From: a virus
Virus record (IMG/VR): IMGVR_UViG_3300016725_000004
Reading direction: 5' to 3' (one strand)
DNA length: 64,000 nt
In this document: positions 22,383-62,834 of the stretch, piece by piece
How the letters are laid out: each line of letters opens with the position of its first letter
Numbering within the stretch: the first letter of the stretch is position 1
Translations under genes and position numbers: made by a program
The notes under the pieces: generated by a model
Seen by the model: the letters and a program-made list of their open reading frames with translations, nothing else
Database searches by the model: none
Told to the model about the DNA's origin: nothing

Positions 22383-24791
22383 CTAGATATTAAATTTATT
22401 ATTTACTTTATCAAATTCTTCAGCAATTTCATCATTTACACGATATTCTTTATTACAAGATAATGCCAAAGCAAGTTGAGCTTTGGTTATTCCTTCACCA
22501 TCTTTACGGCCACATCTTGGGCAAGAATCACCAATTACGCCAACATATCCACATAATGGATCCCTGTCTACTGGATGATTAATTGATCCATACCCAATAC
22601 CTGCATGTTTCATATATTGAATAATTTGTTCAAATGCTTCTGGATTCTCTGCTACGTCACCAGTTACTTCAACATATGAAATATGTCCACCATTTTCATA
22701 TGCATGATAGGGAGCTTCAATATCAATCTTATCAGTAATTGAAATATCATAATATACAGGAACATGATTACTATTTGTATAATAAGCCCTATCAGTTATA
22801 CCGGGAATAACACCAAACTTCTTTTTATCAATATCAACAAATCTACCAGAAAGACCTTCAGCAGGTGTACCAATCAAAGAAAAATTCAACTGTGTTTTCT
22901 GTGTTTGTTCATCACAGCGGTCACGTAGATGCTTTACAATTTTAAGACCTAATTCCTGTGCTTCCGCACTTTCACCATGATGTTTACCAATAAGAGCAAC
23001 TAAAGTTTCAGCTAATCCAATAAATCCAACAGTTAATGTACCATGCTTAATTATTTCTCTAACTTCATCTTCAGGCCCAAGCTTTTCACTGCCAATATAG
23101 ATATGTTGTCCCATAAGGAATGGCATATTTTTACATTTACGTTTAGCCTGTACTTCAAATCTATCCATAAGTTGAATAAAAACTAAATCCAACAATTTGT
23201 CAAGGGATTCAAAGAACTGGTCAATATTATGATTTGCAAGAATACCCAATCTAGGAAGGTTAATACTTGTAAAACTTAAATTACCTCTACCAGTAAAAAC
23301 TTCATAATCTTTATTCACATTACCAACAACACGAGTACGGCATCCCATCGTAGCGGATTCTGTTTCAGGATGACCCGGTACATAATATTGTTTATTAAAC
23401 GGTGCATCCAGAAAAGTAAAGTTAGGAAATAATCTACGACCGCTCACTTTACATGCAAGCTGAAATAGATCATAATTTATATCACCGGGAGTACCATTGA
23501 TTCCGTCCATAACTTTAAAAATATGGATTGGGAAAATAGCAGTTTCCCCATGTCCTAAACCAGCATCAAGAGCATAAAGTAAATTGCTAATAAGCATACG
23601 ACCTTCGGGAGTAGTACAAGTGCCGTAGTTTACACTACTAAATGGAACCTGACTTCCTGCGCGAGAATTTAATGTATTCATATTATGAACAAAAGATTCC
23701 ATAGCTTGATATGTTGATTTATTAGTACGTTTATGAGCAAGTTTGAATACCTTGCGTAAACTATATGCCATATCAAATTCTGTATCATGCACAACATATT
23801 TTTTAATATCACCACTTTTAGCTTGTTCTATATTTGGCATGGAACTTATATGGTCATAACAATCAACTAAACATTCTTCAGTTAATACTGAACCAGTATA
23901 TACTTTAAAAAAGTGCTTAATTTCTTTATAAAGGGGGAAATCTGCAATATCTTCATCTTCAACATAATAGAATGTTTCAATAATATCAAGAACATGTTTT
24001 GCAAAGGTCTTACTAATATATGGAGCTAAATCATAATCAAATTTTGCAATACTCTGACCACCAAACATATCATTCTGACTTGATTGAATAGCAATTGCTG
24101 CAAGAGCAGCAGCAGTTTGAATTGCAGAAGGTTCACGCAAATGTCCAAATCCAGTATTAAAACCATTTTCAAAAAGTTTTCCCAAATCAATTTGAACACA
24201 ATTCAAGCACAGAGGATAAAAATCTAAATCATGAATATGAATACTACCATCAAGATGAGCTTTACTTATTTCAGGACGAAGAAGCATTAAATGTGTAAAC
24301 CGCTTACTTGCTTCTGAACCATAGCGAAGCATAATACCCATACTACCATCACCATTAATATTTGCATTCTCACGCTTTAAATCATTATCTGCTGCATCAC
24401 GCAAAGTTAAATCAGCAATAGTAGTTATCAAATATGAATTTGTTTCTCTTGCTCTATCTCTAGTATAACGATAAGAAATATATTCCTGAGCTAATTCATT
24501 ATAACCAAAATCCATTAACATAAATTCTACTTCATGCTGAATAACATTAATAGTAATTGTAGATTCATTATAGCTGTTAAGCTTTTGTACAACCTGATCG
24601 GTAACACGCATTAAATCTTCATCAGCAATCAATTCAAAATTTTCATTTTTAGATTTTACTGCATCTTGAGCCAAACGAATAGCATGATAAATACGGTTAG
24701 CATCGAACTCTACAGTTTGATTGTCCCGTTTAATTACATTTGTGACCATATGGGTTCCTCCGATTTTTGGGTCAAAAAATAGCTGGTACAT
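22383..24791 (-). CDS. nrdD: anaerobic ribonucleoside-triphosphate reductase (class III RNR) lacking the glycyl-radical tail
   Basis: N-terminal ATP-cone (VIKRDNQTVEFDANRIYHAIRLA), long class III RNR body, C-terminal Cys cluster CGYVGVIGDSCPRCG; no R..GY radical motif at its end. Confidence 0.8.
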   Translation of the reverse strand: MYQLFFDPKIGGTHMVTNVIKRDNQTVEFDANRIYHAIRLAQDAVKSKNENFELIADEDLMRVTDQVVQKLNSYNESTITINVIQHEVEFMLMDFGYNELAQEYISYRYTRDRARETNSYLITTIADLTLRDAADNDLKRENANINGDGSMGIMLRYGSEASKRFTHLMLLRPEISKAHLDGSIHIHDLDFYPLCLNCVQIDLGKLFENGFNTGFGHLREPSAIQTAAALAAIAIQSSQNDMFGGQSIAKFDYDLAPYISKTFAKHVLDIIETFYYVEDEDIADFPLYKEIKHFFKVYTGSVLTEECLVDCYDHISSMPNIEQAKSGDIKKYVVHDTEFDMAYSLRKVFKLAHKRTNKSTYQAMESFVHNMNTLNSRAGSQVPFSSVNYGTCTTPEGRMLISNLLYALDAGLGHGETAIFPIHIFKVMDGINGTPGDINYDLFQLACKVSGRRLFPNFTFLDAPFNKQYYVPGHPETESATMGCRTRVVGNVNKDYEVFTGRGNLSFTSINLPRLGILANHNIDQFFESLDKLLDLVFIQLMDRFEVQAKRKCKNMPFLMGQHIYIGSEKLGPEDEVREIIKHGTLTVGFIGLAETLVALIGKHHGESAEAQELGLKIVKHLRDRCDEQTQKTQLNFSLIGTPAEGLSGRFVDIDKKKFGVIPGITDRAYYTNSNHVPVYYDISITDKIDIEAPYHAYENGGHISYVEVTGDVAENPEAFEQIIQYMKHAGIGYGSINHPVDRDPLCGYVGVIGDSCPRCGRKDGEGITKAQLALALSCNKEYRVNDEIAEEFDKVNNKFNI

Positions 24792-26986: not shown

Positions 26987-27769
26987 TTAATCCCAATCGT
27001 CTTCGTCATCATCCTTGCTGCCCTTCTTGCCTTTGCCCTTGCCCTTGGCAGCCTTGCCGCCCTTGGCAGACTTGCCGCCCTTCTTGCCCTTCTTGGGCTT
27101 TTCTTCTTCGTCATCGTCATCATCGGCGTCCCCGTCATCGTCATCGTCCTCGGAGTCGCCGTCATCATCATCGTCATCGTCCCCGTCATCGTCATCGGAG
27201 TCGCCGTCATCGTCATCGCCGTCATCATCATCGGAGTCGCTGTCATCGTCATCGTCATCGGCGTCCTCGTCCTCGTCCTCGTCTTCGTCCTTCTTCTTCT
27301 TGGCGGCCTTGGCGGGCTTCTTCTTGGCCTTCTTGGAGCCACCGTCCTCGTCTGCGTCTTCGCCGCTCAGTACAGCAGCGTCTTCAGCGACCAGGAACAC
27401 AGCACCGTCTTCATTGGTGACGGCAACAAAGCCGGGCACAGGGCTTTCGGTCAGTTCGCCGGAGTCGTCAGTAATGCTGACAACGCGGGCCCGCGTGGTG
27501 ATAGTCACTTCGTTGCCCTCTTCGTAGCCACCTTCGGCGAAAACGGTGAGCAGGCCGTCATAGGGGAAAAGTTCCACGGTGGAAAGCTGCTTGCGCGGCT
27601 TGCGGTAGGAAATGAGAAGGCCGTTGTCGAGGATTTCCTTGATAGTGCCGGAAATGGTCTGGGGGACAGAAGCTTCGGCTTCAAGCGTATAGGTCTGCAC
27701 AGCAGCCTTCTTGGAAGCCTTCTTGTTGTCCTTCTTACCGCCCTTCTTGGAAGCTTTAACTTTAGCCAT
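26987..27769 (-). CDS. Lys-rich / poly-Asp low-complexity protein (260 aa)
   Basis: ATG at 27769 with AAGGAG RBS; KVKASKKGGKKDNKKASKK N-terminus, globular core, KKAKKKPAKAAKKKK, then about 70-residue Asp tract and KGKGKGKK tail. Confidence 0.55.
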   Translation of the reverse strand: MAKVKASKKGGKKDNKKASKKAAVQTYTLEAEASVPQTISGTIKEILDNGLLISYRKPRKQLSTVELFPYDGLLTVFAEGGYEEGNEVTITTRARVVSITDDSGELTESPVPGFVAVTNEDGAVFLVAEDAAVLSGEDADEDGGSKKAKKKPAKAAKKKKDEDEDEDEDADDDDDDSDSDDDDGDDDDGDSDDDDGDDDDDDDGDSEDDDDDGDADDDDDEEEKPKKGKKGGKSAKGGKAAKGKGKGKKGSKDDDEDDWD

Positions 27770-27933: not shown

Positions 27934-28069
27934 GAACTTTTTTCCCGAATTTTTAACTTTTTTGGAACTCCCACGTTTTCAATTGTGGCGGGCGGGCACA
28001 CAAATTTGAAAGTTTCCTCGGTATTTGCTTGCGCAAAGTGGTAAACTTACAACCTGCGTTCCAAAAAAG

Positions 28070-28240
28070 TTAATCAATTACGTTCTGACACTTAAACTCA
28101 AAGCGCAATGCTGTTTTAAATGACTTCAATGTCTTCGACATGCCCATACGTTTTCTGGACTTTTTACATTTGCAATGTTTTTTGTCCATCTTGTCGTAGT
28201 TCACGTCACTAAGTTTGTGAATACCAACATAGGGTTTCAT
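28070..28240 (-). CDS. small basic protein (about 56 aa)
   Basis: MKPYVGIHKL...CKCKKSRKRMGMSK; AAGGAAAAAAC RBS; hairpin just upstream. Confidence 0.35.
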   Translation of the reverse strand: MKPYVGIHKLSDVNYDKMDKKHCKCKKSRKRMGMSKTLKSFKTALRFEFKCQNVID

Positions 28241-40259: not shown

Positions 40260-41138
40260 CTATATCCTTTCTTGATTGTCAAGATTAGAATATTGACGAA
40301 AATTATCATAGCTACCTTTGCGAATACAAAGTTTAGATATATCTCCAAAGTATTCTTCTAAACAATCAAATAATAATTGGGTAATTTTTACTTCATCTGG
40401 CATTTCAGGTAAATCACAGGATTTACATAATTGATGCAATTCTTTTTCCTGATCTGCAAACCAATTAAGCACCTCGTGTTTAGACCAAGCACCAGTACGA
40501 ATATCTTGTAAATCTTTCTTACGATAATGTAAATCTATCTGTCCAGATTGTAAAATTTGCCTAGCTTCATTTACCAATCTAACTAAGTTGTATGCATATT
40601 TTACATCATATCCATATTTTTCAATTAGTATGCGCCTTTTAGAAAGGCTATCAGGATTCCATTTTGCTTGTAATTTATGTTTCTGTTTATATGCATAACC
40701 AAGATATGTTTTCTTACATAGTTTAGTTACAAATAAACTTCTATTATCACGAACCATCTTTCCAATCTTAGTTTGATTAAGAATACAATCTTGAGAAGAA
40801 AATAAGGAATCAAGAATATTTGGGTTACTTTCAAGTAATAATCTAAAATAATGAACAATATTATAAATTGTTAAATCATGAGATTTATTTTGATACATAA
40901 TATGTGATGGATAATAACCAGTAAATGTAGGAATAGCTGTTGAGAATCCATGTATTTTACCAAAGGAACTAGGAAAAATTAATTCAATAGGAGGGATACA
41001 AAAACTAAAAATATCAATATCTGAAGTTTCAGTTGCTAATCCATAGGCATGACTACCAAGGATAGTTTCATATTCAGTAGTAATTGGAAAATTATAACTA
41101 ATTAAACCGTGTTCAAATAACTGTGATACAATTGACAT
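40260..41138 (-). CDS. nucleotidyltransferase-fold protein (Pol beta superfamily, 292 aa)
   Basis: ILGSHAYGLATETSDIDIFSF (GS..YG...SD.D minimal NTase motif). Confidence 0.5.
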   Translation of the reverse strand: MSIVSQLFEHGLISYNFPITTEYETILGSHAYGLATETSDIDIFSFCIPPIELIFPSSFGKIHGFSTAIPTFTGYYPSHIMYQNKSHDLTIYNIVHYFRLLLESNPNILDSLFSSQDCILNQTKIGKMVRDNRSLFVTKLCKKTYLGYAYKQKHKLQAKWNPDSLSKRRILIEKYGYDVKYAYNLVRLVNEARQILQSGQIDLHYRKKDLQDIRTGAWSKHEVLNWFADQEKELHQLCKSCDLPEMPDEVKITQLLFDCLEEYFGDISKLCIRKGSYDNFRQYSNLDNQERI

Positions 41139-41147
41139 TGTTCTCCT

Positions 41148-41510
41148 TTAAAATAATTGTATATTACCACAAGAATCAATATATGTGACATAAGGTGTAC
41201 GAATAAGATTAACTCCTTTAAACTCTTTAGTATAATTAAATATGTCATTTAAAACCTTTGCAGCTACTTTATCTTCATATTCTTGCAAATTAATATCAGG
41301 TTGTTCTTCAATACAATCTAAATCCTCTGAAAAACTTGAAAGTAAACAATCCAATTCAATACCAGAATTGGTTAATATTGCAATATATTCAAATCCATCA
41401 TCAATATAACGAAAATTAGTTACAGTTACTATTTCATGTTTTGATATTACAGGATTATTATTTTGCAATATATTATGTAAACATTTAACTTTCTGTCCTA
41501 TTTTAAGCAT
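41148..41510 (-). CDS. hypothetical protein (120 aa)
   Basis: minus-strand ORF. Confidence 0.45.
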   Translation of the reverse strand: MLKIGQKVKCLHNILQNNNPVISKHEIVTVTNFRYIDDGFEYIAILTNSGIELDCLLSSFSEDLDCIEEQPDINLQEYEDKVAAKVLNDIFNYTKEFKGVNLIRTPYVTYIDSCGNIQLF

Positions 41511-42364
41511 GCTGTTATCTCCAATATTTCTAGCAACTGGTCATAATTAAGTTTTGAGTAATCTATATCTTTTTTACCTGGAAAGTATTTACAAATCTTT
41601 TCTTCTAGTAGTCTAGCATTAGCTTTGTATATTCTACTTTCTTCTTTACTTCCTTTAGGTTGACAATTATGTTTGTCTTCACTCTCTTTAATATTAGCTT
41701 CAATTTTAGCTATAAGTTTAGATTTTAATTCATCTTGATTCATAACTTTGATAGCGGCATTAACTAGTTGTTCTGGAACTTCTAAAAATTTAGAAAAATC
41801 ACTAGAAGTAAGTTTATTGTGAGGAATAAGAGTATTATACATTTTAATTAATGAAACTATAGTTTCCACTTTTGAAAGATATGGCTCCCTGTATTTATGA
41901 ACTACGAAATATTTATTAGGCAAAGAAATAATAGCTCGTTCTTCTTGATGTTGTATTCTAATATTTGCTTCAATAATACATTTATCTTTTTCTTTAAGTT
42001 CATAAACTAAATTTTTAATATATTCCTCGGATTTTTCATCTTTTATATCTTGAAGAACTTGTTCAACATAACATGTGCAAATTTCTAATATATCAGCGAG
42101 ATCAGTAGCATCCAAATTATTGTCAGGTGCATAAGAATTAAAAGTATCCACTAATCTTTTAGCGGTAAAATTACTAACTTTTCTTGGACAAGAAGCACAT
42201 TCTTTAGCTATTTTATCAAATTCTTCATCAGACATAAAACCAGCTAAATTAGTTACTTGAGCCCGACTAAATTTTAACATGCGTATCAATGACGTTATTA
42301 TTATTTTAATATCAGGGTTAATACTATTCATTAATAACCTCCTGTTCTCGATTATATTTATCAA
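41498..42364 (-). CDS. hypothetical protein (288 aa)
   Basis: minus-strand ORF. Confidence 0.5.
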   Translation of the reverse strand: MINIIENRRLLMNSINPDIKIIITSLIRMLKFSRAQVTNLAGFMSDEEFDKIAKECASCPRKVSNFTAKRLVDTFNSYAPDNNLDATDLADILEICTCYVEQVLQDIKDEKSEEYIKNLVYELKEKDKCIIEANIRIQHQEERAIISLPNKYFVVHKYREPYLSKVETIVSLIKMYNTLIPHNKLTSSDFSKFLEVPEQLVNAAIKVMNQDELKSKLIAKIEANIKESEDKHNCQPKGSKEESRIYKANARLLEEKICKYFPGKKDIDYSKLNYDQLLEILEITACLK

Positions 42365-42932
42365 TAATCATTTTTCTAATTGTTGAATTAATACCTGGAT
42401 TAATTTGTAATACTTCTGGGATTATATTATGTCGTATTCTATTTCTTGGGTGATATACATCTTTATTAGTTTCATCTTCAATCCAACTATAATTATGTTT
42501 AGTCATATATTTAATTAGTTCTTCTTTTGGAGTAAGAAGAAAAGGACGAATAATATTATTACGAGAATAAGGGATTAATTTAGGCTTACCATGAAATGCA
42601 GAAAATAAATAAGTTTCAACACAATCATTTAAATGATGCGCAGTAATTACTGGAGCATCTAAACTCTCTAAAAAATTATATCTATGTTCTCTCCAATATG
42701 CCTCTTTATTTCTTAATATATTATATTTAATCTTTTCAACAATTAAATTAGGTAATCGTTCTTGTAACCAAGCTAATGCATTTTTTGACGTTTCAGTAAG
42801 ATGATTAAAAAATACAGGAATAACTTTACGATTTTTATCTGCACATATAAAATAATAAGCACACATTGAATCTACACCACCGCTAACTGCAACATAGCAA
42901 GTATTTGGAAGCTTTCCTAATAGCTTAATCAT
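42324..42932 (-). CDS. PP-loop ATPase, TilS (tRNA-Ile lysidine synthetase) N-terminal-domain-like (202 aa)
   Basis: YVAVSGGVDSMCAYY (SGGxDS PP-loop) and ITAHHLNDCVETYLF (TilS-like AHhlDDqaET motif). Confidence 0.6.
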   Translation of the reverse strand: MIKLLGKLPNTCYVAVSGGVDSMCAYYFICADKNRKVIPVFFNHLTETSKNALAWLQERLPNLIVEKIKYNILRNKEAYWREHRYNFLESLDAPVITAHHLNDCVETYLFSAFHGKPKLIPYSRNNIIRPFLLTPKEELIKYMTKHNYSWIEDETNKDVYHPRNRIRHNIIPEVLQINPGINSTIRKMIIDKYNREQEVINE

Positions 42933-43219
42933 TCTTCCTCTGATGAATATGGATCTACAAGAACAACGGTTGTTATTTCTTTATCATCTATATAAAAGGT
43001 ATACATTATATGACCAGCATAATCATAACTAATATCTATTGATGAAAAAGTTTCACCACAAAGAAACTTACCATCATAAGGTGTTATATATTGTCTTGGA
43101 GGAAACTTATCAAAATCTCTTAATAATGTTACATTGTGGTAAGATTCAGAAGCAACATCTATAATTGGTAGACTCTCAGAATATGAAAACATAATATGCG
43201 AATCAACAAAGTAGCTCAT
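42929..43219 (-). CDS. hypothetical protein (96 aa)
   Basis: minus-strand ORF. Confidence 0.4.
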   Translation of the reverse strand: MSYFVDSHIMFSYSESLPIIDVASESYHNVTLLRDFDKFPPRQYITPYDGKFLCGETFSSIDISYDYAGHIMYTFYIDDKEITTVVLVDPYSSEEE

Positions 43220-50741: not shown

Positions 50742-51698
50742 TTACCAACGCCTACGGCGATTGGAGTAAAAATGCCACACAAGCAATATGCTTGCAACAC
50801 TAAAACCAACTAACACGATTGTTCCGAATCCCCAAGAGTCAGCATCGTCTTCATCGACTTCGACAGCCTCAACATTGTCCGGAACAAAATCAGGATTAAT
50901 AGCTACATTAGCAGCTTTCATTTCTTCCATACTCTTTTTTACTTCATCAAGTTGCTTCCTTAAATCTTCATTATCTTTAGCCAATACTTCTGCTTCTGCC
51001 AAGAATGCCTTTACACCTTCATCATTTTGACGATGATAAAAGAAGGCACCTTGATTATTCAAAGCATTAGCAGTAGCCTGATTAGCAGCAGCTTGAGCAT
51101 TAACTTTATTAGAATGATCTAACATCATAAATAACATCATAGAATCCCACCCACCGAAACTAGAATGGGTATTATACACATAAGATGGAGGATTTGAATA
51201 ATAATTATTATTAGGTGTAATAAATGTATAAGTTTTACCTGAAGAACTTGTATATGAATTGGGAATAGTAGGTTTACTTGTATTATATGAGCTAATAGAA
51301 TTTCCCTGTTTTGCAAATTTAGTAGAATCGACTTTAGGTACATTATTCATAATTGTAGTTTTGGTAGCTTTCGGTGTACCTGAACCAAATGAACCTGTAA
51401 AAGAATTATTTACTTTTGGTGTAGAGGGGGAAGTAGAGGATTGAGAAGTTTTAGGAGTAGAGGTAACTTTTGGTGTACCTGAACCAAATGAATCTGTAAA
51501 AGAATTATTTACTTTTGGTGTAGAAGATGAAGGTGAAGAATAAGAGGGTTTAGAGCTAACACTGGGCCTGCTACTCGAAAAACCTCCTCCTCTTCCGCCA
51601 CCACCACTACTTCCACCTTTAGCATCAGTAATTGCGGGAAGAAAAGCTAAGGAAACTACGCAAAATATGATAAGTAGAATACTACTAAATTTTTTCAT
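50742..51698 (-). CDS. secreted/membrane-anchored repeat protein (318 aa)
   Basis: signal peptide, Gly/Ser-rich region, two 33-aa repeats (TPKVNNSFTGSFGSGTPK), C-terminal TM plus RRRRW. Confidence 0.5.
   Translation of the reverse strand: MKKFSSILLIIFCVVSLAFLPAITDAKGGSSGGGGRGGGFSSSRPSVSSKPSYSSPSSSTPKVNNSFTDSFGSGTPKVTSTPKTSQSSTSPSTPKVNNSFTGSFGSGTPKATKTTIMNNVPKVDSTKFAKQGNSISSYNTSKPTIPNSYTSSSGKTYTFITPNNNYYSNPPSYVYNTHSSFGGWDSMMLFMMLDHSNKVNAQAAANQATANALNNQGAFFYHRQNDEGVKAFLAEAEVLAKDNEDLRKQLDEVKKSMEEMKAANVAINPDFVPDNVEAVEVDEDDADSWGFGTIVLVGFSVASILLVWHFYSNRRRRW
51361..51527 (-). repeat. about 99-bp direct tandem repeat (x2) inside CDS 50742-51698
   Basis: ggtgtacctgaaccaaatgaa(c/t)ctgtaaaagaattatttacttttggtgtaga occurs at 51373-51425 and 51472-51524. 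Confidence 0.6.
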
Positions 51699-52953: not shown

Positions 52954-53267
52954 TACTCACAAAATAAAATTAACATTTTATTTTCATCATATAAATATGT
53001 ACTACCCTTAAATTTACAATTATTTTTATTTGCAAATTCTTCAAAAGATTCACAAGTATCAGTACAAAATCCTATTACGTTACCATCTTGTACAAATGGA
53101 GTTGCATTATTTATAGAGAAAGCAGATTGTTTAATAGGTTTAGATTTTGTAGAAGAAGGAAATGAAGTTCTCCTTTGTTCAATCCAGGTACTTACAAATA
53201 AACAAAGGATACCAATAATGAATACATAAAAATACCATTTATTAGAAGAAGACATTATTATCTCCAA
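52953..53267 (-). CDS. membrane-anchored small protein (104 aa)
   Basis: N-terminal TM helix. Confidence 0.45.
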   Translation of the reverse strand: MEIIMSSSNKWYFYVFIIGILCLFVSTWIEQRRTSFPSSTKSKPIKQSAFSINNATPFVQDGNVIGFCTDTCESFEEFANKNNCKFKGSTYLYDENKMLILFCE

Positions 53268-53361
53268 GTTATAGGGTTACTACGCACGAAAAGGCGAGAG
53301 GACAAACCCTCTCGCCTTTATATATTTGCGATAAGGGAATTAAACCCCTTATATTGTTTTC

Positions 53362-53437
53362 TGGTGGGCCTGTCCAGATTCGAACTGGAAGTCCAAGACT
53401 TAGAAGGTCTTTGCATTATCCGTTATGCTACAGGCCC
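53362..53437 (-). tRNA. tRNA-Arg (anticodon UCU)
   Basis: 76-nt cloverleaf GGGCCTG-TA-GCAT-AACGGATA-ATGC-A-AAGAC-CTTCTAA-GTCTT-GGACT-TCCAG-TTCGAAT-CTGGA-CAGGCCC-A-CCA; all four stems perfectly paired, U33, TTCGAAT T-loop, encoded CCA. Confidence 0.85.
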
Positions 53438-53444
53438 AGAAATA

Positions 53445-53699
53445 TTATTTTCCATCGAAAGGAAAATCAATAAGCTGCAAGTATCCTTTCATTTGAGCAA
53501 TAGCAGCTTTTCTCCCTTTGTTAAAACCAAGGGAGTAACTTGTTTGGTGAATAGTTTTCAACTGCTCTTGTAAAGAGCAAATTTTAGTATTACTCTCTTC
53601 TAAGTTTAATAGACACTGAAACTTTTCTTCTGTAGTATCATTTAATTTATCTAGCCAAATTTGGCAAGCATCATGTACTACTAAAGGTTTTTCATCCAT
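53445..53699 (-). CDS. hypothetical protein (84 aa)
   Basis: minus-strand ORF. Confidence 0.4.
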   Translation of the reverse strand: MDEKPLVVHDACQIWLDKLNDTTEEKFQCLLNLEESNTKICSLQEQLKTIHQTSYSLGFNKGRKAAIAQMKGYLQLIDFPFDGK

Positions 53700-54238
53700 T
53701 ATTTATTCTCTCGAATAATTTTAAAAATAAAATCAACAAATTTTTTGTTGAAAAAGTCCTTTCCATATTTTTCAATCATCATCTTCTTAGTAGATTTTGC
53801 CAACTTGTAGTTTGATGGGCCTTCATACAATTTACCAACAAAAGAAGGATAAACTAAAGTGTCAAAGTCCATCGGCGTCTTGACTTCAATTTCAGCGGAA
53901 ATCAGGTTGGTATCATCATAAGAATCAACTTCCCAAATATCAGAACCAATACAAACTTGATAGCGAGTTTTATAATTAAAAACTCCATCGCACATTGAAA
54001 ACAAACTATAAGCTTCCATTCGAGAAACGGGAATATTTACTTCTTCCCGTGAATGCTTGGAAAGTTGTTGCTTCAAAGTAAGGCAATAGGAAATCTTTCC
54101 AGAAATATTTTCAATTCGGATACGACCAACTTTGCCGTCATCATGAAATATAAACCCTTGAAGCATTTTAGAGGTTGACGTAACATGTTCTTTCCAAGAG
54201 TCGCCAACCACTTCAAATTTACGTTCAATTTCGCGCAT
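53699..54238 (-). CDS. CYTH-domain (triphosphate tunnel metalloenzyme) protein (179 aa)
   Basis: N-terminal MREIERKFEVV (EIExKF CYTH signature); follows promoter. Confidence 0.55.
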   Translation of the reverse strand: MREIERKFEVVGDSWKEHVTSTSKMLQGFIFHDDGKVGRIRIENISGKISYCLTLKQQLSKHSREEVNIPVSRMEAYSLFSMCDGVFNYKTRYQVCIGSDIWEVDSYDDTNLISAEIEVKTPMDFDTLVYPSFVGKLYEGPSNYKLAKSTKKMMIEKYGKDFFNKKFVDFIFKIIRENK

Positions 54239-54297
54239 GATTTTATCCTTTTTTCAATTACTAGTATTACTGGCAAAATTACCAATTCACTAGCTAA

Positions 54298-54326
54298 ATT
54301 ATACCATATTTTTATGGTTATGTCAA
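54298..54326 (-). promoter_or_regulatory. consensus sigma70 promoter (TTGACA-N17-TgGTATAAT)
   Basis: -35 at 54321-54326, -10 at 54298-54303. Confidence 0.55.
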
Positions 54327-54880
54327 GGTTCGATTAAATCAATATATAAGCCACAATGGCATTTTCCTACCACCCGCACTTCCTTGCATGGGCAAATTGT
54401 ATCTTCATTTTCGTAAGTAGTACAAGGACAATGACCATTACGATTTTTAATTCTAAAATAAATACGGTCAACTAATTCGGTATTTGGATTCATTACCAAA
54501 ATATTACCTGATTTTGAAAAAATCATAGTACGAGAATTAAGTGAAGAATAATCAGGTTGAGAATTAATAGAATTAAACTTAATTTGTTCCTTGGGAAGTA
54601 TATACCTCCTACCATTACAATTTTGAACCAAGTATTTATCAGTTACTTCAATATCTAATATTCTTGGAGATATTTTTGGACTTTTTGAATCAAAAGCTTT
54701 CTCCCCCAAAGCTTCAATACATGCTACTAAAATAGGAGAATGCTGAGGATAAATTAAATTTGCAATAAAATTTGGATAAACTAAATCAATATTAATATTT
54801 TTTAAATGAGCTAAATTTGGATCGTTTTCAATAAACCATTTAACTGCTTCCTTAGAAAATGTATCACTCAAATTAGTCAT
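54323..54880 (-). CDS. protein with C-terminal CPC..CPC..CHC cysteine cluster (ferredoxin-thioredoxin-reductase catalytic-subunit-like)
   Basis: GHCPCTTYENEDTICPCKEVRVVGKCHCGLY (CPC-x9-CPC-x8-CHC); start taken at MTNLSD. Confidence 0.35.
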   Translation of the reverse strand: MTNLSDTFSKEAVKWFIENDPNLAHLKNINIDLVYPNFIANLIYPQHSPILVACIEALGEKAFDSKSPKISPRILDIEVTDKYLVQNCNGRRYILPKEQIKFNSINSQPDYSSLNSRTMIFSKSGNILVMNPNTELVDRIYFRIKNRNGHCPCTTYENEDTICPCKEVRVVGKCHCGLYIDLIEP

Positions 54881-55415
54881 TGCGAATTTCAAGTTTTCCC
54901 CTCCATTTAATATCATAAGCATATGATAAAAATTCTTGAAATCTAGCAATATGGTCATCAAAAAAGAAATTAAATATTGGAAGTTTATAATGTTGGGCAA
55001 TTCGCAATGCTTGTGTAGTGCCACCAGATTTAGGTGTCCAGCACACAATAAATTCTGTAGGAGTTTTTAAATCAAATCCTAAAACTTGATAGCAATTTCT
55101 ACCATGTAATCGTTGACCATAATCAGATAAGTTAAACCACGCAGGATGAAATTCACAAGCCATATCTAAAGCTTTACCTGTAACTTTATATAAAGGAGAA
55201 GGATTATTATTAAAATTCTTTTCGGGTAAATATATTTCTTTCTTACCTTTTACTAAATCACAACCACGTTCAAATGCAGAATCTGCACCATCTGCACCTC
55301 CAGAACGTAGTATAAATTTATTTTTACCCAAAAGCTTTCCAATATTAACCATTAGTTTTAATATGAACTTAGGAGTATCTCTACTACCAATGCCAGTATA
55401 AATATTAGGAGTCAT
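54873..55415 (-). CDS. SLOG/DprA-like Rossmann-fold protein (DUF2493-type, 180 aa)
   Basis: YTGIGSRDTP ... ILRSGGADGADSAFERG (DprA/SLOG nucleotide-binding motifs). Confidence 0.5.
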   Translation of the reverse strand: MTPNIYTGIGSRDTPKFILKLMVNIGKLLGKNKFILRSGGADGADSAFERGCDLVKGKKEIYLPEKNFNNNPSPLYKVTGKALDMACEFHPAWFNLSDYGQRLHGRNCYQVLGFDLKTPTEFIVCWTPKSGGTTQALRIAQHYKLPIFNFFFDDHIARFQEFLSYAYDIKWRGKLEIRND

Positions 55416-55638
55416 TTTTACGTTCTTTTATTTGTCTTTCATCATATTCATTTGTTATTTCTTTAATCTTTAATACACAAGCATCATATCCAAGTTGATA
55501 CATATTACGTTTATCTTGCTTTAATTCTTCAATCACTTGAAGAGCTTCATTTAATTTTGTTTCAAGGTGTTCAATTCGTTTAAGTAATTGTTTAGTATTG
55601 TTTGGAGGTGGTGGCGGTGGTGGAATAGAGTTTAGCAT
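55405..55638 (-). CDS. Pro-rich/coiled-coil small protein (77 aa)
   Basis: MLNSIPPPPPPPNN then heptad region. Confidence 0.4.
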   Translation of the reverse strand: MLNSIPPPPPPPNNTKQLLKRIEHLETKLNEALQVIEELKQDKRNMYQLGYDACVLKIKEITNEYDERQIKERKNDS

Positions 55639-56063
55639 TATTTTTCCTCCTTAGATTTATCTTTCTCAATTGAGAATACTGAGGGTATAACAACTTTGAA
55701 TTGTTCTCGAATATACTCACAAATTTCTTCAGATACCTTACAAGTAGCAACAATAAATATAATTTGACCTTTCAAAAATGTATGAAGAATCTTCAAATCT
55801 TTTAATTCAATCTGCTTAGTAGCAAATTGTGTGTTATATAAATAAGTAAAATTAACTTTTTCATTTTTATTAAGGTATTCATTAATTCTAGTAACGTAAT
55901 AAATATAATCCGTACCATCAAGAGATAATACTTTGGTAAAAGTTACTTTATGAGCACCAGAAACAACATTATAATCTAAATCCGTAAAACGAAAATCGTT
56001 AAATAATTCAGGAAATTCAAGTGATTTAGGTTCTTGCTTTTTAGGCAACTTTTTGCTTTTCAT
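55638..56063 (-). CDS. hypothetical protein (about 141 aa)
   Basis: start MKSKKLPKK with GGAGGAAAAG RBS. Confidence 0.45.
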   Translation of the reverse strand: MKSKKLPKKQEPKSLEFPELFNDFRFTDLDYNVVSGAHKVTFTKVLSLDGTDYIYYVTRINEYLNKNEKVNFTYLYNTQFATKQIELKDLKILHTFLKGQIIFIVATCKVSEEICEYIREQFKVVIPSVFSIEKDKSKEEK

Positions 56064-56592
56064 CTTTTCCTCCACAGAAAATACAACGATATGTTTCTGA
56101 TGCATTATCATCATCAAAATGCATTACATGTAAACCACAAGGTGAATGGTAACATGGATGATACCCAATCATAAAATTATCATTATATTTAATTTTATTT
56201 TTTATCATTATATCTTCAACATACTCTCTTATAGTATTTTCATATCCCCAAACATATCTAACTACTTCAGCACAACTTTTTTGCAAAATATGCAAACATT
56301 CTATTTTATATTTTAAAGTAGGTTTAGCATTAATTGGTGTAAAACTTTCTTTTGTGGATAATCCACAAAAAATACAAGTTTTATCTCCATAAAATATATC
56401 AGTTATAGCATGATATCCAAAGGGGGAAATAGAACATGTTCCAAAAGTATAATAGGATTCAATTTGAGAATTTTGAATTAAACCTTGTTTAACACAGCAT
56501 TTACCTAAATCATCAAGAAAATTTAATCTAATATTTAGTGAACTTCGTTGTAAATTTCTTAAAGTTAAATAGGATGATATTAATTTTTCCAC
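56041..56592 (-). CDS. Cys/His-rich protein (183 aa)
   Basis: multiple C..C and H..C pairs (CIFCG, PCYHSPCG, CIFCGG). Confidence 0.45.
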   Translation of the reverse strand: MEKLISSYLTLRNLQRSSLNIRLNFLDDLGKCCVKQGLIQNSQIESYYTFGTCSISPFGYHAITDIFYGDKTCIFCGLSTKESFTPINAKPTLKYKIECLHILQKSCAEVVRYVWGYENTIREYVEDIMIKNKIKYNDNFMIGYHPCYHSPCGLHVMHFDDDNASETYRCIFCGGKDEKQKVA

Positions 56593-56912
56593 GGTGAATA
56601 CTTTACTAATTCTTCCATACTCATTACTTCTTTAATAGTACGCTTTCTCAAATCGAGATACGCTTCTTCATTTTGACTTGCAAATACGCAAAAACCCTTT
56701 CCACATTCAGGACAAATAGAATCAATCCAATAATCATCTTGTGAAGGATCATAATTACCTGTATCTGAACTAAGTTTAGAATAGACTTGATTATGATTAC
56801 ATTTACTTTGAAAATTAGCAACTTGTTTCCAAAGTTCAACTTTTTCATCTACATTTCGTCTAATTGCTTGAATAAGATTATTTCTAATTTCTTGCATTTC
56901 AGGAGATTTCAT
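56580..56912 (-). CDS. hypothetical protein with CPECG motif (110 aa)
   Basis: minus-strand ORF. Confidence 0.4.
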   Translation of the reverse strand: MKSPEMQEIRNNLIQAIRRNVDEKVELWKQVANFQSKCNHNQVYSKLSSDTGNYDPSQDDYWIDSICPECGKGFCVFASQNEEAYLDLRKRTIKEVMSMEELVKYSPWKN

Positions 56913-57351
56913 TATTTGACTCCATTGAATTTAGTTCAGTTAGTGATTGCATCATTATATCAGGATTTACAATATTAATCAACATGTCGCCATGCTCAAG
57001 TATACCATCAAGAAAACCCAAATCTCGAAGTACATCAGGTTTCTGTATTTTAGCATCTTTCTTATTTAAGATTTGATTAATTTCATCAATTATAAATCCA
57101 ACCTTATTATTCAAATTACAAACAATAATCTTACAATTTTCATGAATTTCATATGTATTAGAACTTGAACAAATCATACGAAAATCAATAATAGGAACAA
57201 TAGTTCCTCTTAAATTTATAATACCTGCAAGATAATCAGGTGAATTAGGAAGTTTAGTTATATTAGGAATTTTTATAATACAATCCATTTTATTAATATC
57301 CAAACCATATTCAGTATTACCGCATTTAAATGTAATTATATGAATGTCCAT
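56899..57351 (-). CDS. CheW-like domain protein (150 aa)
   Basis: KCGNTEYGLDINKMDCIIKIPNITKLPNSPDYLAGIINLRGTIVPIIDFRMI matches CheW fold signature (..YG....V.EI.....P.....G..NLRG..VPVIDLR). Confidence 0.6.
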   Translation of the reverse strand: MDIHIITFKCGNTEYGLDINKMDCIIKIPNITKLPNSPDYLAGIINLRGTIVPIIDFRMICSSSNTYEIHENCKIIVCNLNNKVGFIIDEINQILNKKDAKIQKPDVLRDLGFLDGILEHGDMLINIVNPDIMMQSLTELNSMESNNEIS

Positions 57352-57352
57352 A

Positions 57353-58108
57353 TTAGACCTCCTGTACTGTAATTTTTAGCCTTGGGCCAGAAATCCAATC
57401 TTCAGCTTCAACATGTTTTAATTCTTGAGGTATTCTATTATAATCTTGATAACAAGTACGCAAACTAACATAATGTTCCTTACGATAATAGTAAAAGCCC
57501 CGTTTACCTTCTCCAATATAACAATCAATTAAAATTTCTGGAATTATTCCCGTACATCTATTTTTCAATTCAATTTGTCTAGTTTCTGGATTCCATACAA
57601 TATCAGCAACTAAGATTTTATTATCGCATTTTAAACAAATACAATAAATTACATATGGATTTAATCTATCTTCTTCTCCATAAGTATTAAACATTGTATA
57701 TTTCTTTTTATTAAACATAAAAGTACAACCACCATAAGCATCAATCCAAGTAGAATTTTTAATAGTATTAGCTATAGTGTTGGTAGATATACCAGCACCC
57801 ATCCAAAAATAATCTGTAAAACCTTCTTCATTTAGAGCTTCCCATTCACTTTCAGTATAATCTTCAATTTCTTCTGGTGTTAAATCACAAATATCATTCA
57901 TACAAAATTCAAGATTCTTATCTGCACCCATAAAAAAGATAATATTTTTTGAAAAACAATATTCAACAAATTTATTATAAATATCTTTATCCCAATGATA
58001 AGGTTGATTTATGCAATCTAAATACCTTTCAATCTTTTTAGGATTATCCATAATACAATATTTAAATTGTTTAAATATAGATAAAAAATAGTCAAATACT
58101 TCCATCAT
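57353..58108 (-). CDS. hypothetical protein (251 aa)
   Basis: minus-strand ORF. Confidence 0.5.
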   Translation of the reverse strand: MMEVFDYFLSIFKQFKYCIMDNPKKIERYLDCINQPYHWDKDIYNKFVEYCFSKNIIFFMGADKNLEFCMNDICDLTPEEIEDYTESEWEALNEEGFTDYFWMGAGISTNTIANTIKNSTWIDAYGGCTFMFNKKKYTMFNTYGEEDRLNPYVIYCICLKCDNKILVADIVWNPETRQIELKNRCTGIIPEILIDCYIGEGKRGFYYYRKEHYVSLRTCYQDYNRIPQELKHVEAEDWISGPRLKITVQEV

Positions 58109-58109
58109 A

Positions 58110-58514
58110 TTAACTCCTCAAATGTGGTGGTTTACAATTATGAATTAAATATTCTTTATCTTCTAATTTAGCTAAATTACATAAATCTGAGAAATAAGGA
58201 ATTTCAGACTCTAGAAAATAAATATGCTTATCATAAGCCAAGGCAAATAATATTTCATCCCAAGCACCCATTCCAATATACCCATTGGTATTTAATACAA
58301 AAATACTATCTGATTGAAATATTTTTTGCTGGTACATTTCATCTAACATGTGTTTTACTTTACCACTCATATCTAAATTCTCTACATGACCAAATAATCC
58401 AACGGTATGAACAATATATCCATCTAAGGTACAACATTTTAATTGCTCTTTCCAAACATTAGGAAATTTAGTTGAGCCGACTAGTGTTAGTGTTGGGAAC
58501 ACAATTATTCCCAA
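58110..58514 (-). CDS. hypothetical protein (134 aa)
   Basis: minus-strand ORF. Confidence 0.45.
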   Translation of the reverse strand: MGIIVFPTLTLVGSTKFPNVWKEQLKCCTLDGYIVHTVGLFGHVENLDMSGKVKHMLDEMYQQKIFQSDSIFVLNTNGYIGMGAWDEILFALAYDKHIYFLESEIPYFSDLCNLAKLEDKEYLIHNCKPPHLRS

Positions 58515-58777
58515 CTTACAGTTGTTTTATCATAATCATTATCATAAGATACTTTATAATCATCTTTTCGTAATTGTTTAATTGTTTGTTCTATTACTTT
58601 ATTTTGGATAGATGCAGGAGAAGATTTAACAATATTTAATAAATTCACGGTACACTGAAAATATCCTTGTACTGCATTTTGCATACAAAGTTGTGTTACT
58701 TTGTAAATACATTCATCAACCTTTTGTTCAATATTAAGTGTAGTATTAGCTATTTCTCTCAATTTAGCCGCATTCAT
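58505..58777 (-). CDS. hypothetical protein (90 aa)
   Basis: minus-strand ORF. Confidence 0.4.
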   Translation of the reverse strand: MNAAKLREIANTTLNIEQKVDECIYKVTQLCMQNAVQGYFQCTVNLLNIVKSSPASIQNKVIEQTIKQLRKDDYKVSYDNDYDKTTVSWE

Positions 58778-59540
58778 AATTTCCCCCTAATTCAGGATGA
58801 AAATTTATTAATTGTTTGCTTTGCTTATTATACATTATTTCAGTCAATAACACAAACACTTGCAATCTATCAATTTGAGTATTTGTACTTAATACAAAGA
58901 TATATTTAGTTAAACAAATACCATCTGAAGGAGTATTAGTACAAAGATTACATTTAATACTAGTTTTAATATTAAAAGATTTTATTGCTTCTTTAATACA
59001 GGCATTACAATTATTTTGCATTTCATCAAAATAATTAAATATTTCTTTTTCGACAAATTCAACTAAATTATTTAGTTTCTTTTTAATTGTAGGAAAAGCA
59101 TATTCATATTTTCTAATCAATTTATTACGAGTAAATTCATCTAATTTTGCCATTCTATCTTTAGCAGTATTATGACTCATATCTGAGTATTTTATACAAA
59201 TCAATTCTAAATTATTTGTTGCCAATATATCTTCTATATAATCAATATATTTTTTATGTTTGTTGTTAAGTAATTGAATTAAATTTTTTGCATAAGGTGA
59301 TAACGTAATATTAATTTTAGCTAAATCTTCTTCGAGTATATCTAATGTAATATCTGTGTCTTCTAATAAATCATGAAAATATGCTGCAAGTCTTGCTGAA
59401 TTTGAAACCCAAATAGGTAAGTTATTTGAAACAGCTATAGGATGATGATAATAAGGTTTTCCAACCTTATCAACTTGAGTACCATGATATTTTATTAGTA
59501 ATTGGGCAATTTGTTCTGATTGTTTTAAACTAAATCCCAT
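58764..59540 (-). CDS. RelA/SpoT-type HD-domain hydrolase (small alarmone hydrolase-like, 258 aa)
   Basis: KYHGTQVDKVGKPYYHHPIAVS ... LAAYFHDLLEDTDIT (RSH hydrolase motifs G.PY..HP..VA and HDxxEDT). Confidence 0.6.
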   Translation of the reverse strand: MGFSLKQSEQIAQLLIKYHGTQVDKVGKPYYHHPIAVSNNLPIWVSNSARLAAYFHDLLEDTDITLDILEEDLAKINITLSPYAKNLIQLLNNKHKKYIDYIEDILATNNLELICIKYSDMSHNTAKDRMAKLDEFTRNKLIRKYEYAFPTIKKKLNNLVEFVEKEIFNYFDEMQNNCNACIKEAIKSFNIKTSIKCNLCTNTPSDGICLTKYIFVLSTNTQIDRLQVFVLLTEIMYNKQSKQLINFHPELGGNYECG

Positions 59541-59794
59541 AAGTCATCCCCTTCTACTTCATCAACTTTATCAGTTTTAACAGGTTTAGAATCAAATCCA
59601 TATTCATATAGTTCTTTCCAAGCTTCATAAGGAATACATGCAGATACATCATCAGGTTTTTGAGCAATAACAACCATATCTATAAATTCATCAATTTGCT
59701 TCTTCTCTTCTTCAGTAGCATTAGGAAATGCACCACTTCCAAGAGTAGCTTTAATTATTTCATTCATATTACCACCAACTAATTCTGTTAACAT
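59525..59794 (-). CDS. small acidic protein (89 aa)
   Basis: minus-strand ORF. Confidence 0.4.
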   Translation of the reverse strand: MLTELVGGNMNEIIKATLGSGAFPNATEEEKKQIDEFIDMVVIAQKPDDVSACIPYEAWKELYEYGFDSKPVKTDKVDEVEGDDLWDLV

Positions 59795-59857
59795 AAATTA
59801 TACGTTTTTTACTTAAACGGTAAGTAAGAGGGAATTTAGAAACTTTGAAATAACTCA

Positions 59858-60163
59858 TTAAAACACCCAACCTAAAATTGCACCAAATGGATATACAATT
59901 ACACCTAAGCAACATAATATAAAATGTGTAGTACATGCAGATAAATATGTAAAAATATTTGTAGTAGTAATAGGTAAATCAGGAGCTAGAGTATATACAT
60001 TTTCAAAATTAATTAAATATCCAATGATATACAAGTATGTCAGACATCTAAATAATACTTTAATATACCAGTTAGATGTTTCTAACTTAAATTTATAAAA
60101 GAATAAATTAATTTGGAATTTCTCTTTAACTTTAGTTATTCCTAACTTTTCTCGAATATTCAT
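59858..60163 (-). CDS. small membrane protein (101 aa)
   Basis: hydrophobic ORF. Confidence 0.4.
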   Translation of the reverse strand: MNIREKLGITKVKEKFQINLFFYKFKLETSNWYIKVLFRCLTYLYIIGYLINFENVYTLAPDLPITTTNIFTYLSACTTHFILCCLGVIVYPFGAILGWVF

Positions 60164-60501
60164 TTTAGCAGCTTTGATTTGTAACTATCTAAAATTGTAT
60201 TATGATGTCCAATGCTCTCTTCTAAAGAAGGTCTAGCATCTTTATTTTTAATGTTAGGAGTAGGAGGGGTTTTTACTTTTGGAGAAGTATCCGGAATATT
60301 AGAGGTAGTAGCAAATAATGAGGAAGGTATCACACCAAAAAATGTAGCAGCAGAAGAAATACTAAACATTAAAGTAATTAAAATTATTACAATACAAAGG
60401 ATACGAATCTTTTTGTTCTTATACACAGAAAAACAATAACAAGAAATTAATAGTATAAACATTATAATAGCCGTTACGAATAATATTGAAAATAATGACA
60501 T
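60160..60501 (-). CDS. small membrane protein (113 aa)
   Basis: two TM helices. Confidence 0.4.
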   Translation of the reverse strand: MSLFSILFVTAIIMFILLISCYCFSVYKNKKIRILCIVIILITLMFSISSAATFFGVIPSSLFATTSNIPDTSPKVKTPPTPNIKNKDARPSLEESIGHHNTILDSYKSKLLK

Positions 60502-61349: not shown

Positions 61350-61582
61350 GAATTTCTCCGAGTTAAGGTTAATGGGCCTGAGGTAAAAGTTACTCCCACG
61401 TCATGCAAACCAAGTGCTGCACACCGTTTAGCAATACAACAAATACACAATAATCCTGCCCCTTCTATTTCAGGAATAGGACTAATAACTCTCCAAACTT
61501 CATCAGGAACTATACAATCAATCCAACCTAAACCACCATATTTTCTACCGCAATCATAACATTCACCACTAGGTCTAATCAT
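61346..61582 (-). CDS. small Cys-rich protein (78 aa)
   Basis: CYDCG ... CICCIAKRC. Confidence 0.4.
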   Translation of the reverse strand: MIRPSGECYDCGRKYGGLGWIDCIVPDEVWRVISPIPEIEGAGLLCICCIAKRCAALGLHDVGVTFTSGPLTLTRRNS

Positions 61583-62569: not shown

Positions 62570-62834
62570 TTCTTCCTGAAGTTACATCTTTAACAATAGT
62601 AACTGCACAAAATACCATTGCTTGCAATGCAATTATCATTCCAACAATAAATAATAGTAGTAGCATTCCAAAAAGTATTGAAGGAATAAAACAAGTAATC
62701 CAATCCATATCTTGGTACATATAATGCTTCAAACAGAGAAAAGATAATTGGCTACTAAGCCAAGCAGTAACACCAATGCAAATTAGCAACAATCTATCAA
62801 AAGCAGTTTCCGTCATTTTGATTTCATTTTCCAT
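62538..62834 (-). CDS. small membrane protein (98 aa)
   Basis: hydrophobic ORF. Confidence 0.4.
   Translation of the reverse strand: MENEIKMTETAFDRLLLICIGVTAWLSSQLSFLCLKHYMYQDMDWITCFIPSILFGMLLLLFIVGMIIALQAMVFCAVTIVKDVTSGRNGSNSTKTDK

Follow-up and report, generated by a model that had tools for sequence, protein, structure and literature searches.

To our knowledge, tRNA(Ile)-lysidine synthetase (TilS) is near-universal and essential in bacteria, and we know of no other wobble-modifying enzyme that is thought to need appended domains, since its substrate has the same anticodon as tRNA-Met. Two C-terminal domains (CTDs) may follow the catalytic N-terminal domain (NTD): CTD1, which binds the tRNA body and anticodon stem, occurs in every described Type I and Type II enzyme, and CTD2, which reads the acceptor stem, defines Type I; Type II TilS is also without CTD2, so membership does not need it. 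Recent enzymology distinguishes Type I (NTD, CTD1 and CTD2) from Type II (NTD and CTD1), plus long fusions (PMC11947777, PMC12514573), and reports of TilS from phages (PMC6892783, PMC7029224, PMC8504454) list the gene only, with a function given as unknown or possibly tRNA maturation. Here we followed up an open reading frame (ORF), hereafter tilS, in a 64,000-nucleotide (nt) stretch of viral DNA (IMG/VR record IMGVR_UViG_3300016725_000004; the window), which an earlier note on the DNA had called TilS-like. Homology, fold, catalytic motifs, purifying conservation and gene linkage lead us to favour the view, to which we assign a probability of about 0.7, that the product of this gene is an active, minimal lysidine synthetase by which a phage tRNA-Ile2(CAU) is matured for AUA reading.

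The ORF lies on the minus strand and runs from ATG to TAG at exactly 42324-42932, giving the 202 amino acids (aa) that the earlier note had claimed. Both motifs quoted there are found in the translation, namely YVAVSGGVDSMCAYY, which is the SGGxDS PP-loop (within the stretch YVAVSGGVDSM), and ITAHHLNDCVETYLFSAF; TAHHLNDCVETYLF likewise lies within it. As read from the sequence, a Shine-Dalgarno-like purine-rich stretch (AGAGGAAGA, 42933..42942, minus strand) abuts the ATG on its 5' side. The TGA of the upstream ORF overlaps the tilS start codon (ATGA at 42929-42932) and the tilS TAG overlaps the ATG end of the next ORF (277 aa; 41498..42331, minus strand) by 8 nt, which indicates a tightly packed co-directional operon where the 277-aa ORF is probably translationally coupled to tilS. 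A split TilS whose CTDs are encoded by this downstream ORF was considered and ruled out: it holds no TilS C-terminal domain, has no Pfam match and no PDB sequence match, gives E=3.9 against E. coli TilS in BLASTP and finds a single weak PHROG match, to a function-unknown family. Because TAG is the stop of tilS, and megaphages of ~640 kb are its closest relatives in GenBank, stop-codon recoding was checked as well. It is ruled out by the packing of genes in the standard code, by the next ATG overlapping the TAG and by the use of all three stops in window ORFs of at least 100 aa (TAA 49, TGA 20, TAG 18), so that the TAG of tilS is a real stop, the code standard and the length of 202 aa real.

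Pfam places the protein in PF01171 only (E=1.3e-27), and the NCBIfam model TIGR02432 (lysidine_TilS_N) scores 105.6 bits against a curated cut-off of 93.6 (E=2.8e-30). The next different NCBIfam family, TtcA, has a cut-off of 272 bits and reaches 20.1; MnmA reaches 14 bits. A scan of PHROGs v4 returned no family corresponding to the phage protein, and its marginal matches (QueC-like, E=0.013; NAD-synthetase, E=0.0036) each extend over ~40-60 residues at the PP-loop. In the PDB, TilS alone gives significant sequence matches, with A. aeolicus (1wy5) at 2.5e-18, MesJ of E. coli at 9e-10 and the G. kaustophilus enzyme at 1e-6. An AlphaFold2 model based on 37 homologs (predicted local distance difference test, pLDDT, 95.7; predicted TM-score, pTM, 0.90) agrees with this, as Foldseek against the PDB puts A. 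aeolicus TilS on top (TM-score relative to the query, TMq, 0.77-0.80; 30-31% identity), a group to which its ATP/Mg/Lys complex 2E89 belongs (31% identity at TMq 0.80), followed by MesJ of E. coli (TMq 0.77, 25% identity). TtuA structures form a second tier (TMq 0.66-0.75, 15-19% identity), and NadE and GMP-synthase folds score 0.5 or lower. The proposed match to tRNA(Ile)-lysidine synthetase therefore holds, with TIGR02432 over its cut-off and TilS at the top of PDB and fold searches, and so does the choice of TilS rather than TtcA, QueC or GuaA, set beforehand as a refutation test, in which rivals of the 105.6-bit TilS_N match scored far lower and TilS structures came first.

That the protein might instead belong to another PP-loop family (TtcA/TtuA, QueC, MnmA, NAD/GMP synthetase), or be the inactive remnant of a captured bacterial tilS, is to our minds hardly credible. 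TtuA is its second-best fold, and an HxxDDxxET-like motif is common to TtcA, to which there is a weak NCBIfam match. Against this stand the low TtcA and MnmA scores, the marginal QueC and NAD-synthetase PHROGs and an identity to TtuA about half that to TilS (15-19% versus 30-31%). An alignment of 37 family members holds no invariant Cys, which excludes Fe-S thiolase chemistry of the TtcA/TtuA type. On these grounds (no invariant Cys, TtcA far under its cut-off, TtuA at 15-19% identity) we rejected a TtcA/TtuA thiolase, and an identity as QueC, GuaA or NadE was dropped too, given no significant profile match and folds at TMq of 0.5 or less. As for a remnant, at least 150 clusters of relatives (50% identity) have retained both the length of ~200 aa and the catalytic motifs, so that we are dealing with a lineage, not a fragment.

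Conservation relative to the published catalytic and lysine-binding residues of TilS was judged at the level of motifs. The SGGxDS PP-loop (S17-G18-G19-V-D21-S22) is invariant in the 37 family members and E. coli TilS, and these members (41-57% identity) retain, next to SGGxDS, the catalytic motifs H44 and E77-W80-R81-R84 as well as H99-x-L-x-D103-x-x-E106, R129-P130, D153-x-x-N156 and R163-(N164)-x-x-R167. Aligned with E. coli TilS, the phage representatives have 24 positions in common with it (among them S17, G18, G19, D21, S22, H44, E77, R81, R84, Y85, L101, D103, E106, G115, R129, P130, D153, N156, R163, N164, R167 and P172). The TilS-specific helical subdomain is present: the stretch WIEDETNKDVYHPRNRIRHNIIPE corresponds in alignments to the motif w-x-E-D-x-S/T-N ... 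R-N-x-I-R-h of A. aeolicus and E. coli TilS, its D153, N156, R163 and R167 are invariant in the family, and in the model helices 154-201 coincide with those of TilS structures. This subdomain is the lysine-binding site according to PMC12069591 (citing Nakanishi 2005), which bears on the identity of the amine. TilS-like chemistry with another amine, or with a further-processed product (e.g. of the ava2C type) instead of plain lysidine, may be envisaged, as C34 derivatives of tRNA-Ile2 besides lysidine exist (ava2C and agmatidine, reviewed in PMC11947777) and the family has features foreign to E. coli TilS (MIKLLGK, W80, K118, NPG). We regard it as very improbable, however, since the subdomain that PMC12069591 assigns to lysine binding is kept, with D-x-S/T-N and R-N-x-x-R, and the best structural matches include the lysine-bound A. 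aeolicus complex. Lysine thus seems the likely amine donor of the phage enzyme.

A word-indexed search with the tilS protein returned 346 proteins, the best 120 clusters of which (90% identity) are nearly all of 195-220 aa, with a few up to 248, and share 40-58% identity over at least 93% of their length. An exhaustive HMMER search over cluster representatives (50% identity) had 127 of them at E<=1e-30, and its best 150 clusters are nearly all 190-230 aa long. Relatives are encoded on more than 522 IMG/VR viral contigs. The N-terminal MIKLLGK, W80, K118 and a C-terminal I-N-P-G are specific to this short family, in which they are conserved; all are present in the window protein and missing from E. 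coli TilS. Its closest protein relatives (52-54% identity) lie near a tRNA-Arg(UCU), and one has a CAU tRNA 1.6 kb off. Among GenBank phages the best matches are two uncultured ~640-kb phages (41%), followed, at 39.6% identity over 87% of the query, by Pseudomonas jumbo phages of the PA5oct/MIJ3 group, where the protein is annotated as tRNA(Ile)-lysidine synthetase; 10 kb of the window found no megablast match in 50,697 phage records. Some group A pelagimyophages carry tilS as well (PMC7029224). The window gene is therefore a member of an already-annotated, uncharacterised phage family, and the searchable literature holds no account of an N-domain-only TilS class nor of a coupling between tilS and tRNA-Ile2 genes. 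New here, within that literature, are the missing C-terminal domains and the coupling to tRNA-Ile2 genes.

The closest GenBank homolog sits in a 635-kb uncultured phage (LR745206.1, 359005-389583; 7224-7298 and 30424-30495 of that stretch) between two large tRNA clusters, which contain two CAU tRNAs and two tRNA-Ile(UAU), so that both known solutions to AUA decoding are found in one genome.

With respect to architecture, the earlier note had it right that only the catalytic N-domain is there. In the alignment the protein stops at about residue 215-220 of the 432-aa E. coli TilS, which is the end of the N-domain; CTD1 is absent (E. coli TilS alignment; Pfam shows PF01171 only), and so is CTD2 by the same alignment and Pfam. 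One consequence to be weighed, which the earlier note had also raised, is that the N-domain might be competent only with a tRNA-binding partner, be it host TilS in a heterodimer or a phage or host RNA-binding protein, and inactive or very weak when alone. Consistent with such a need, bacterial TilS requires its distal domains for efficient catalysis (PMC11947777) and tilS is translationally coupled to two function-unknown ORFs. Yet the family has no conserved protein neighbour, the next feature being mostly the tRNA; the neighbours of PA5oct tilS are unrelated small ORFs and the downstream 277-aa ORF has no sequence similarity to TilS CTDs or known folds. Moreover, with hosts as diverse as Pseudomonas, gut anaerobes and probably SAR11, an interface with host TilS is less likely to be conserved. 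So all in all, we consider dependence on a partner unlikely.

The candidate substrates, tRNAs with a CAU anticodon, do accompany the gene. Scanning 80 viral loci (of the more than 522 contigs with relatives) for tRNAs in 10-kb flanks, we found a CAU tRNA within 10 kb of tilS in 43. It adjoins tilS in 29 of the 80, where uniform placement would predict 1.2 by chance, and lies 9-63 nt past the tilS stop in 25 loci (median 19) and 16-88 nt upstream in four. All 29 adjacent CAU tRNAs are on the tilS strand, and 21 are the sole tRNA of their locus. In fact, every one of the 223 tRNAs in the 80 loci is on the tilS strand, with CAU the commonest anticodon, at three times the frequency of the next (46 versus 15). 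The adjacency persists after de-replication, in 22/49 tilS clusters at 90%, 14/33 at 70% and 7/12 at 60% identity, and hence is not an artefact of redundancy. Association with tRNA-Arg(UCU) recurs too, in PA5oct, in loci L094 and L097 and with 10 such tRNAs among the 80 loci.

To which amino acid a CAT-anticodon tRNA belongs can be judged by the discriminators of Silva et al. 2006 (PMC1635315), whereby a tRNA with G3/A3 or C70/T70 is neither Met nor fMet, C4-G69 with C5-G68 is typical of Ile, and A11-T24 with a C1xA72 mismatch marks an initiator. With acceptor-stem positions read in a pairing-based register, all of the 29 adjacent tRNAs (22 unique) score as tRNA-Ile(CAT), 28 under the hard 3:70 rule, and C4-G69 and C5-G68 are seen in most; by the same rules none of the 29 carries initiator or Met-like marks. 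Their median identity is 0.75 to E. coli tRNA-Ile2, 0.69 to elongator Met and 0.64 to fMet. The anticodon loop CUCAUAA is invariant among them and G30-C40 nearly so, compared with C30-G40 in E. coli elongator Met. Speculatively, the 30:40 pair may be a candidate element for TilS recognition.

These tRNAs also speak to the idea that the short protein, for want of the discriminating CTDs, is a promiscuous C34 modifier, which lysidinylates host elongator tRNA-Met(CAU) in addition and so serves AUG depletion and host takeover, or protection against an anticodon nuclease. TilS from B. cenocepacia (BcTilS) without CTD2 does show relaxed acceptor-stem discrimination (PMC11947777), and the window has RNA-repair-associated genes (RlaP, 40260-41138; HAD_SAK_2, 4708-5277). 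The same truncated BcTilS, however, still refuses tRNA-Met (PMC11947777), the strand-matched linkage is specific to tRNAs of the Ile2 type, with none of the 29 adjacent tRNAs Met-like or an initiator, and the phage itself depends on AUG decoding (~24 AUG per 1000 codons). A promiscuous role therefore seems decidedly improbable to us.

Two further RNA features were seen in the sampled loci. Several viral contigs, 75-190 kb in size, carry phage genes for transfer-messenger RNA (tmRNA), two of them permuted, upstream of the short tilS and its tRNA(CAU), at a distance of ~0.4-9 kb (L010:7873-8309, L011:6867-7171, L012:5308-5609, L015:9257-9565, L040:721-1028 and L065:9133-9533), making tmRNA a second translation-related RNA that travels with the tilS-tRNA module. 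Five loci have, ~2 kb downstream of tilS, CUA-anticodon tRNAs that are amber-suppressor-like and called 'Pyl' by ARAGORN (L027/L030/L035:12466-12539, L031:12117-12191, L047:11882-11957), and these may indicate TAG recoding in the phages concerned.

How does the window phage itself compare? The tRNA-Arg(UCU) that the earlier note had placed at 53362-53437 is there on the minus strand, 10.4 kb upstream of tilS (ARAGORN; Rfam RF00005, 66.8 bits), and the window holds this tRNA only and no CAU tRNA by ARAGORN, by Rfam at the gathering threshold or by a covariance model made from tilS-adjacent tRNAs. Contigs of the same phage from other assemblies, retrieved through the terminal proteins of the window, extend it to the right (L090) and left (L091 and L092). 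L090 is 99.99% identical to window positions 53129-64000 (1 mismatch in 10,872 nt) and runs ~9.8 kb further, and the left-end extension in L091 yielded no tRNA. The tRNA-Arg(UCU) turns out to be the proximal member of a cluster that continues past the right end of the window with Lys(UUU), Leu(CAA), Asn(GUU), Thr(UGU) and an Ile2-like CAU tRNA. The latter (L090:5569-5645, equivalent to window positions 68132-68208) is on the same strand as tilS, ~4 kb past the right end and ~25 kb upstream of the gene. Its best E. coli match is tRNA-Ile(CAT) (82.1% over the full length), with the 5' strand of the acceptor stem and the D-arm identical; identities amount to 0.79 for E. coli Ile2, 0.69 for Met and 0.62 for fMet. 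It is not an initiator (C11-G24, paired 1:72), carries C4-G69 and scores 85.2 bits on the model of tilS-adjacent tRNAs, over E. coli Ile2 itself at 79.4. The window phage thus encodes the enzyme, a plausible substrate tRNA and Arg(UCU), and the suggestion that a phage tRNA encoded elsewhere might be the substrate is borne out by this tRNA and by the family-wide coupling of tilS to tRNA-Ile2(CAU). Between tRNA-Lys and tRNA-Leu of the same cluster, L090:3099-3175 (window-equivalent ~70602-70678) gives a weak tRNA-like match (27 bits with the custom model) that ARAGORN misses, and could represent a tRNA that is degenerate or unusual.

In line with the description of the phage as AT-rich and heavy in AUA and AGA, the GC content of the window is 30.4%, AUA accounts for 22-25 per 1000 codons (25-27% of Ile codons), which is high use by the categories of PMC12514573, and AGA makes up 31-34% of Arg codons. 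AUA-heaviness is only moderate, though, as AUU dominates at 65% of Ile codons. The notion that decoding is deliberately remodelled for rare AT-rich codons applies to this phage by analogy with PA5oct only. The window encodes NrdD with an ATP-cone (22383-24791, minus strand, E=1.8e-177) whose nearest phage relatives are on human-faecal contigs (55%) and in Clostridioides phages (42%), relatives from which the host is probably a low-GC gut anaerobe. The benefit to the window phage may hence be extra capacity during infection rather than the filling of a gap.

PA5oct provides a worked example in which codon supply can be compared. A cluster of 12 tRNAs, which includes three 'tRNA-Met' genes and Arg(UCU), precedes its 203-aa tilS, the gene being 7-10 kb downstream. 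Two of these CAU tRNAs are Ile2-like (CAU1 and CAU2; 27559-27635 and 28040-28116 of locus L005, 9-10 kb upstream of tilS): the core of their anticodon stem-loop, GCGACTCATAATCGC, is identical to E. coli tRNA-Ile(CAT), and their best full-body match in E. coli is an annotated tRNA-Ile with CAT anticodon. Their acceptor stems differ, and CAU2 has G3-C70. The third CAU tRNA has a C1xA72 mismatch and is initiator-like. PA5oct uses AUA at 44-45 per 1000 codons (53% of Ile codons), compared with 0.9 per 1000 in P. aeruginosa, which has none in highly expressed genes and whose TilS is ~17-fold less efficient than the E. coli enzyme (both PMC12514573, Table 1). With phage AUA use ~50-fold that of the host and a slow host enzyme, PA5oct is the clearest instance and makes a compelling case for a phage-borne AUA-decoding module. 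As a side observation, CAU1 and CAU2 have bodies that are identical over positions 8-65 and acceptor stems that are wholly different (CCCTCGG/TCGAGGG versus GGGACTT/AAGTCCC), which is unusual for a recent duplicate and could reflect different needs for synthetase or processing.

Taken as an active lysidine synthetase for phage tRNA-Ile2, the short protein would follow the established TilS mechanism, with ATP spent by its PP-loop domain on adenylating the C2 position of cytidine 34, in a tRNA whose anticodon is CAU, before the epsilon-amine of lysine displaces AMP to leave lysidine at 34. The modified tRNA would then read AUA in place of AUG and be charged by isoleucyl- rather than methionyl-tRNA synthetase. 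In the window phage the preferred substrate would be its own tRNA-Ile2(CAU) from the same-strand cluster ~25 kb upstream, with host tRNA-Ile2 as a possible second one, and enzyme and tRNA together would give the phage its own AUA-decoding supply during infection. Since both tRNA-reading CTDs are absent, recognition would have to rely on the anticodon stem-loop (CUCAUAA; G30-C40), on co-evolution with the phage tRNA or on tRNA abundance.

Several observations weigh against this. Removal of CTD2 alone costs BcTilS its activity sharply, albeit incompletely (PMC11947777), so weak activity, or dependence on help, might be expected of an enzyme that lacks both CTDs; on the other hand, the same BcTilS variant, with its 3:70 acceptor-stem discrimination relaxed, keeps refusing tRNA-Met (PMC11947777). 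A CAU tRNA was not found within 10 kb of tilS in 37 of the 80 loci, and in the window phage the CAU tRNA, at ~25 kb, is not adjacent to the gene. That tRNA has C3-G70 and hence no hard Ile discriminator by the rules of PMC1635315, and the covariance model separates weakly (E. coli Ile2 at 79.4 versus elongator Met at 76.3 bits), so that its Ile2 call rests mainly on overall likeness to E. coli Ile2. With a host that is probably low in GC, a codon-supply mismatch in the window phage can be suggested by analogy with PA5oct at most. Finally, gp263 of MIJ3 was described as a putative lysidine synthase TilS, then called unreported in phages, with its function given as unknown (PMC6892783).

A bolder proposal, for which we see an even chance, is that the ~200-aa proteins constitute a third, N-domain-only TilS class that is fully competent and forms a mobile two-gene AUA-decoding cassette with a co-evolved tRNA-Ile2(CAU). 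If true, the catalytic domain alone makes lysidine and tells tRNA-Ile2 from tRNA-Met, presumably by the anticodon stem-loop, and this would run counter to the prevailing view, in which one appended domain for tRNA binding is the least that TilS requires. The short TilS and its candidate substrate tRNA would offer an experimental system for minimal determinants of tRNA-Ile2 recognition, which are stated to be an open question for Type II enzymes (PMC11947777). Scattered phage annotations would become a defined enzyme-tRNA module by which AT-rich phages need not rely on the host to decode AUA, and the pair is potentially a compact orthogonal AUA-decoding system for codon reassignment.

Other features of the window deserve brief mention. 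Over 64 kb, the 87 ORFs of 100 aa or more are all on the minus strand and most have no recognisable family, a one-strand layout that resembles the long co-directional early/accessory regions of jumbo phages. The contig from which the window comes has a size of 0.2-1 Mb. An adenylosuccinate-synthetase homolog (9260-10324, minus strand, 354 aa) matches the NCBIfam model PurZ best (NF038379; 260 bits against a cut-off of 300, well over PurA models), so the phage might make 2-aminoadenine (Z) DNA; Pfam recognised no MazZ- or DatZ-like neighbour in 10 flanking ORFs. The RlaP-family nucleotidyltransferase (40260-41138, minus strand) is two genes downstream of tilS (Pfam 3.2e-14; phrog_388 1.5e-47), and the HAD_SAK_2 protein (4708-5277, minus strand) is a domain match to the 'Swiss Army Knife RNA repair' family. 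Together with the tRNA cluster and tilS, these two hint at a broader theme of tRNA maintenance or counter-defence. Secondary BLAST matches revealed a 63-nt direct repeat (51363-51425 and 51462-51524, minus strand; copies 95% identical and 99 nt apart), which falls inside a 318-aa ORF (50742-51698) and therefore amounts to an internal 21-residue repeat spaced 33 residues.

Compared with systems known to act on tRNA in a similar manner, archaeal TiaS (agmatidine synthetase) is a functional analogue, as it gives tRNA-Ile2(CAU) the ability to read AUA by modifying C34. Its catalytic domain and mechanism are unrelated to TilS (PMC12069591), and we found no sequence or fold similarity between it and the phage protein. 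The sulfurtransferases TtuA and TtcA are like phage TilS in their PP-loop fold and in adenylation logic at C2 of a tRNA pyrimidine, but they need Fe-S-cluster Cys residues (and zinc fingers in TtuA), while the phage family is without an invariant Cys. Among phage relatives, ORF84 of Ralstonia phage RsoM2USA is annotated as TilS and, at 349 aa, is a longer form than the window protein, whereas PA5oct TilS (QCG76301.1, 203 aa) has the same N-domain-only size and, as in the window phage, is encoded downstream of a tRNA cluster with an Ile2-like CAU tRNA and tRNA-Arg(UCU). Type I TilS (E. coli TilS/MesJ, 1NI5; the G. kaustophilus TilS-tRNA complex, 3A2K) has a homologous catalytic N-domain, with the same predicted chemistry and substrate class (tRNA-Ile2 with CAU anticodon). 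The 432-aa E. coli enzyme, however, reads tRNA body and acceptor stem (4:69, 5:68) by CTD1 and CTD2, of which the phage protein has neither. Closest in sequence (E=2.5e-18) and structure is Type II TilS from A. aeolicus (1WY5, 2E21, 2E89), which is also without CTD2 and has in common with the phage protein the PP-loop, an HxxDDxxET-type motif and the D-E-T/S-N...R-N-R-I-R helix; at 317 aa it keeps a CTD1 that reaches the anticodon stem and elbow, while the 202-aa phage protein is the N-domain alone.

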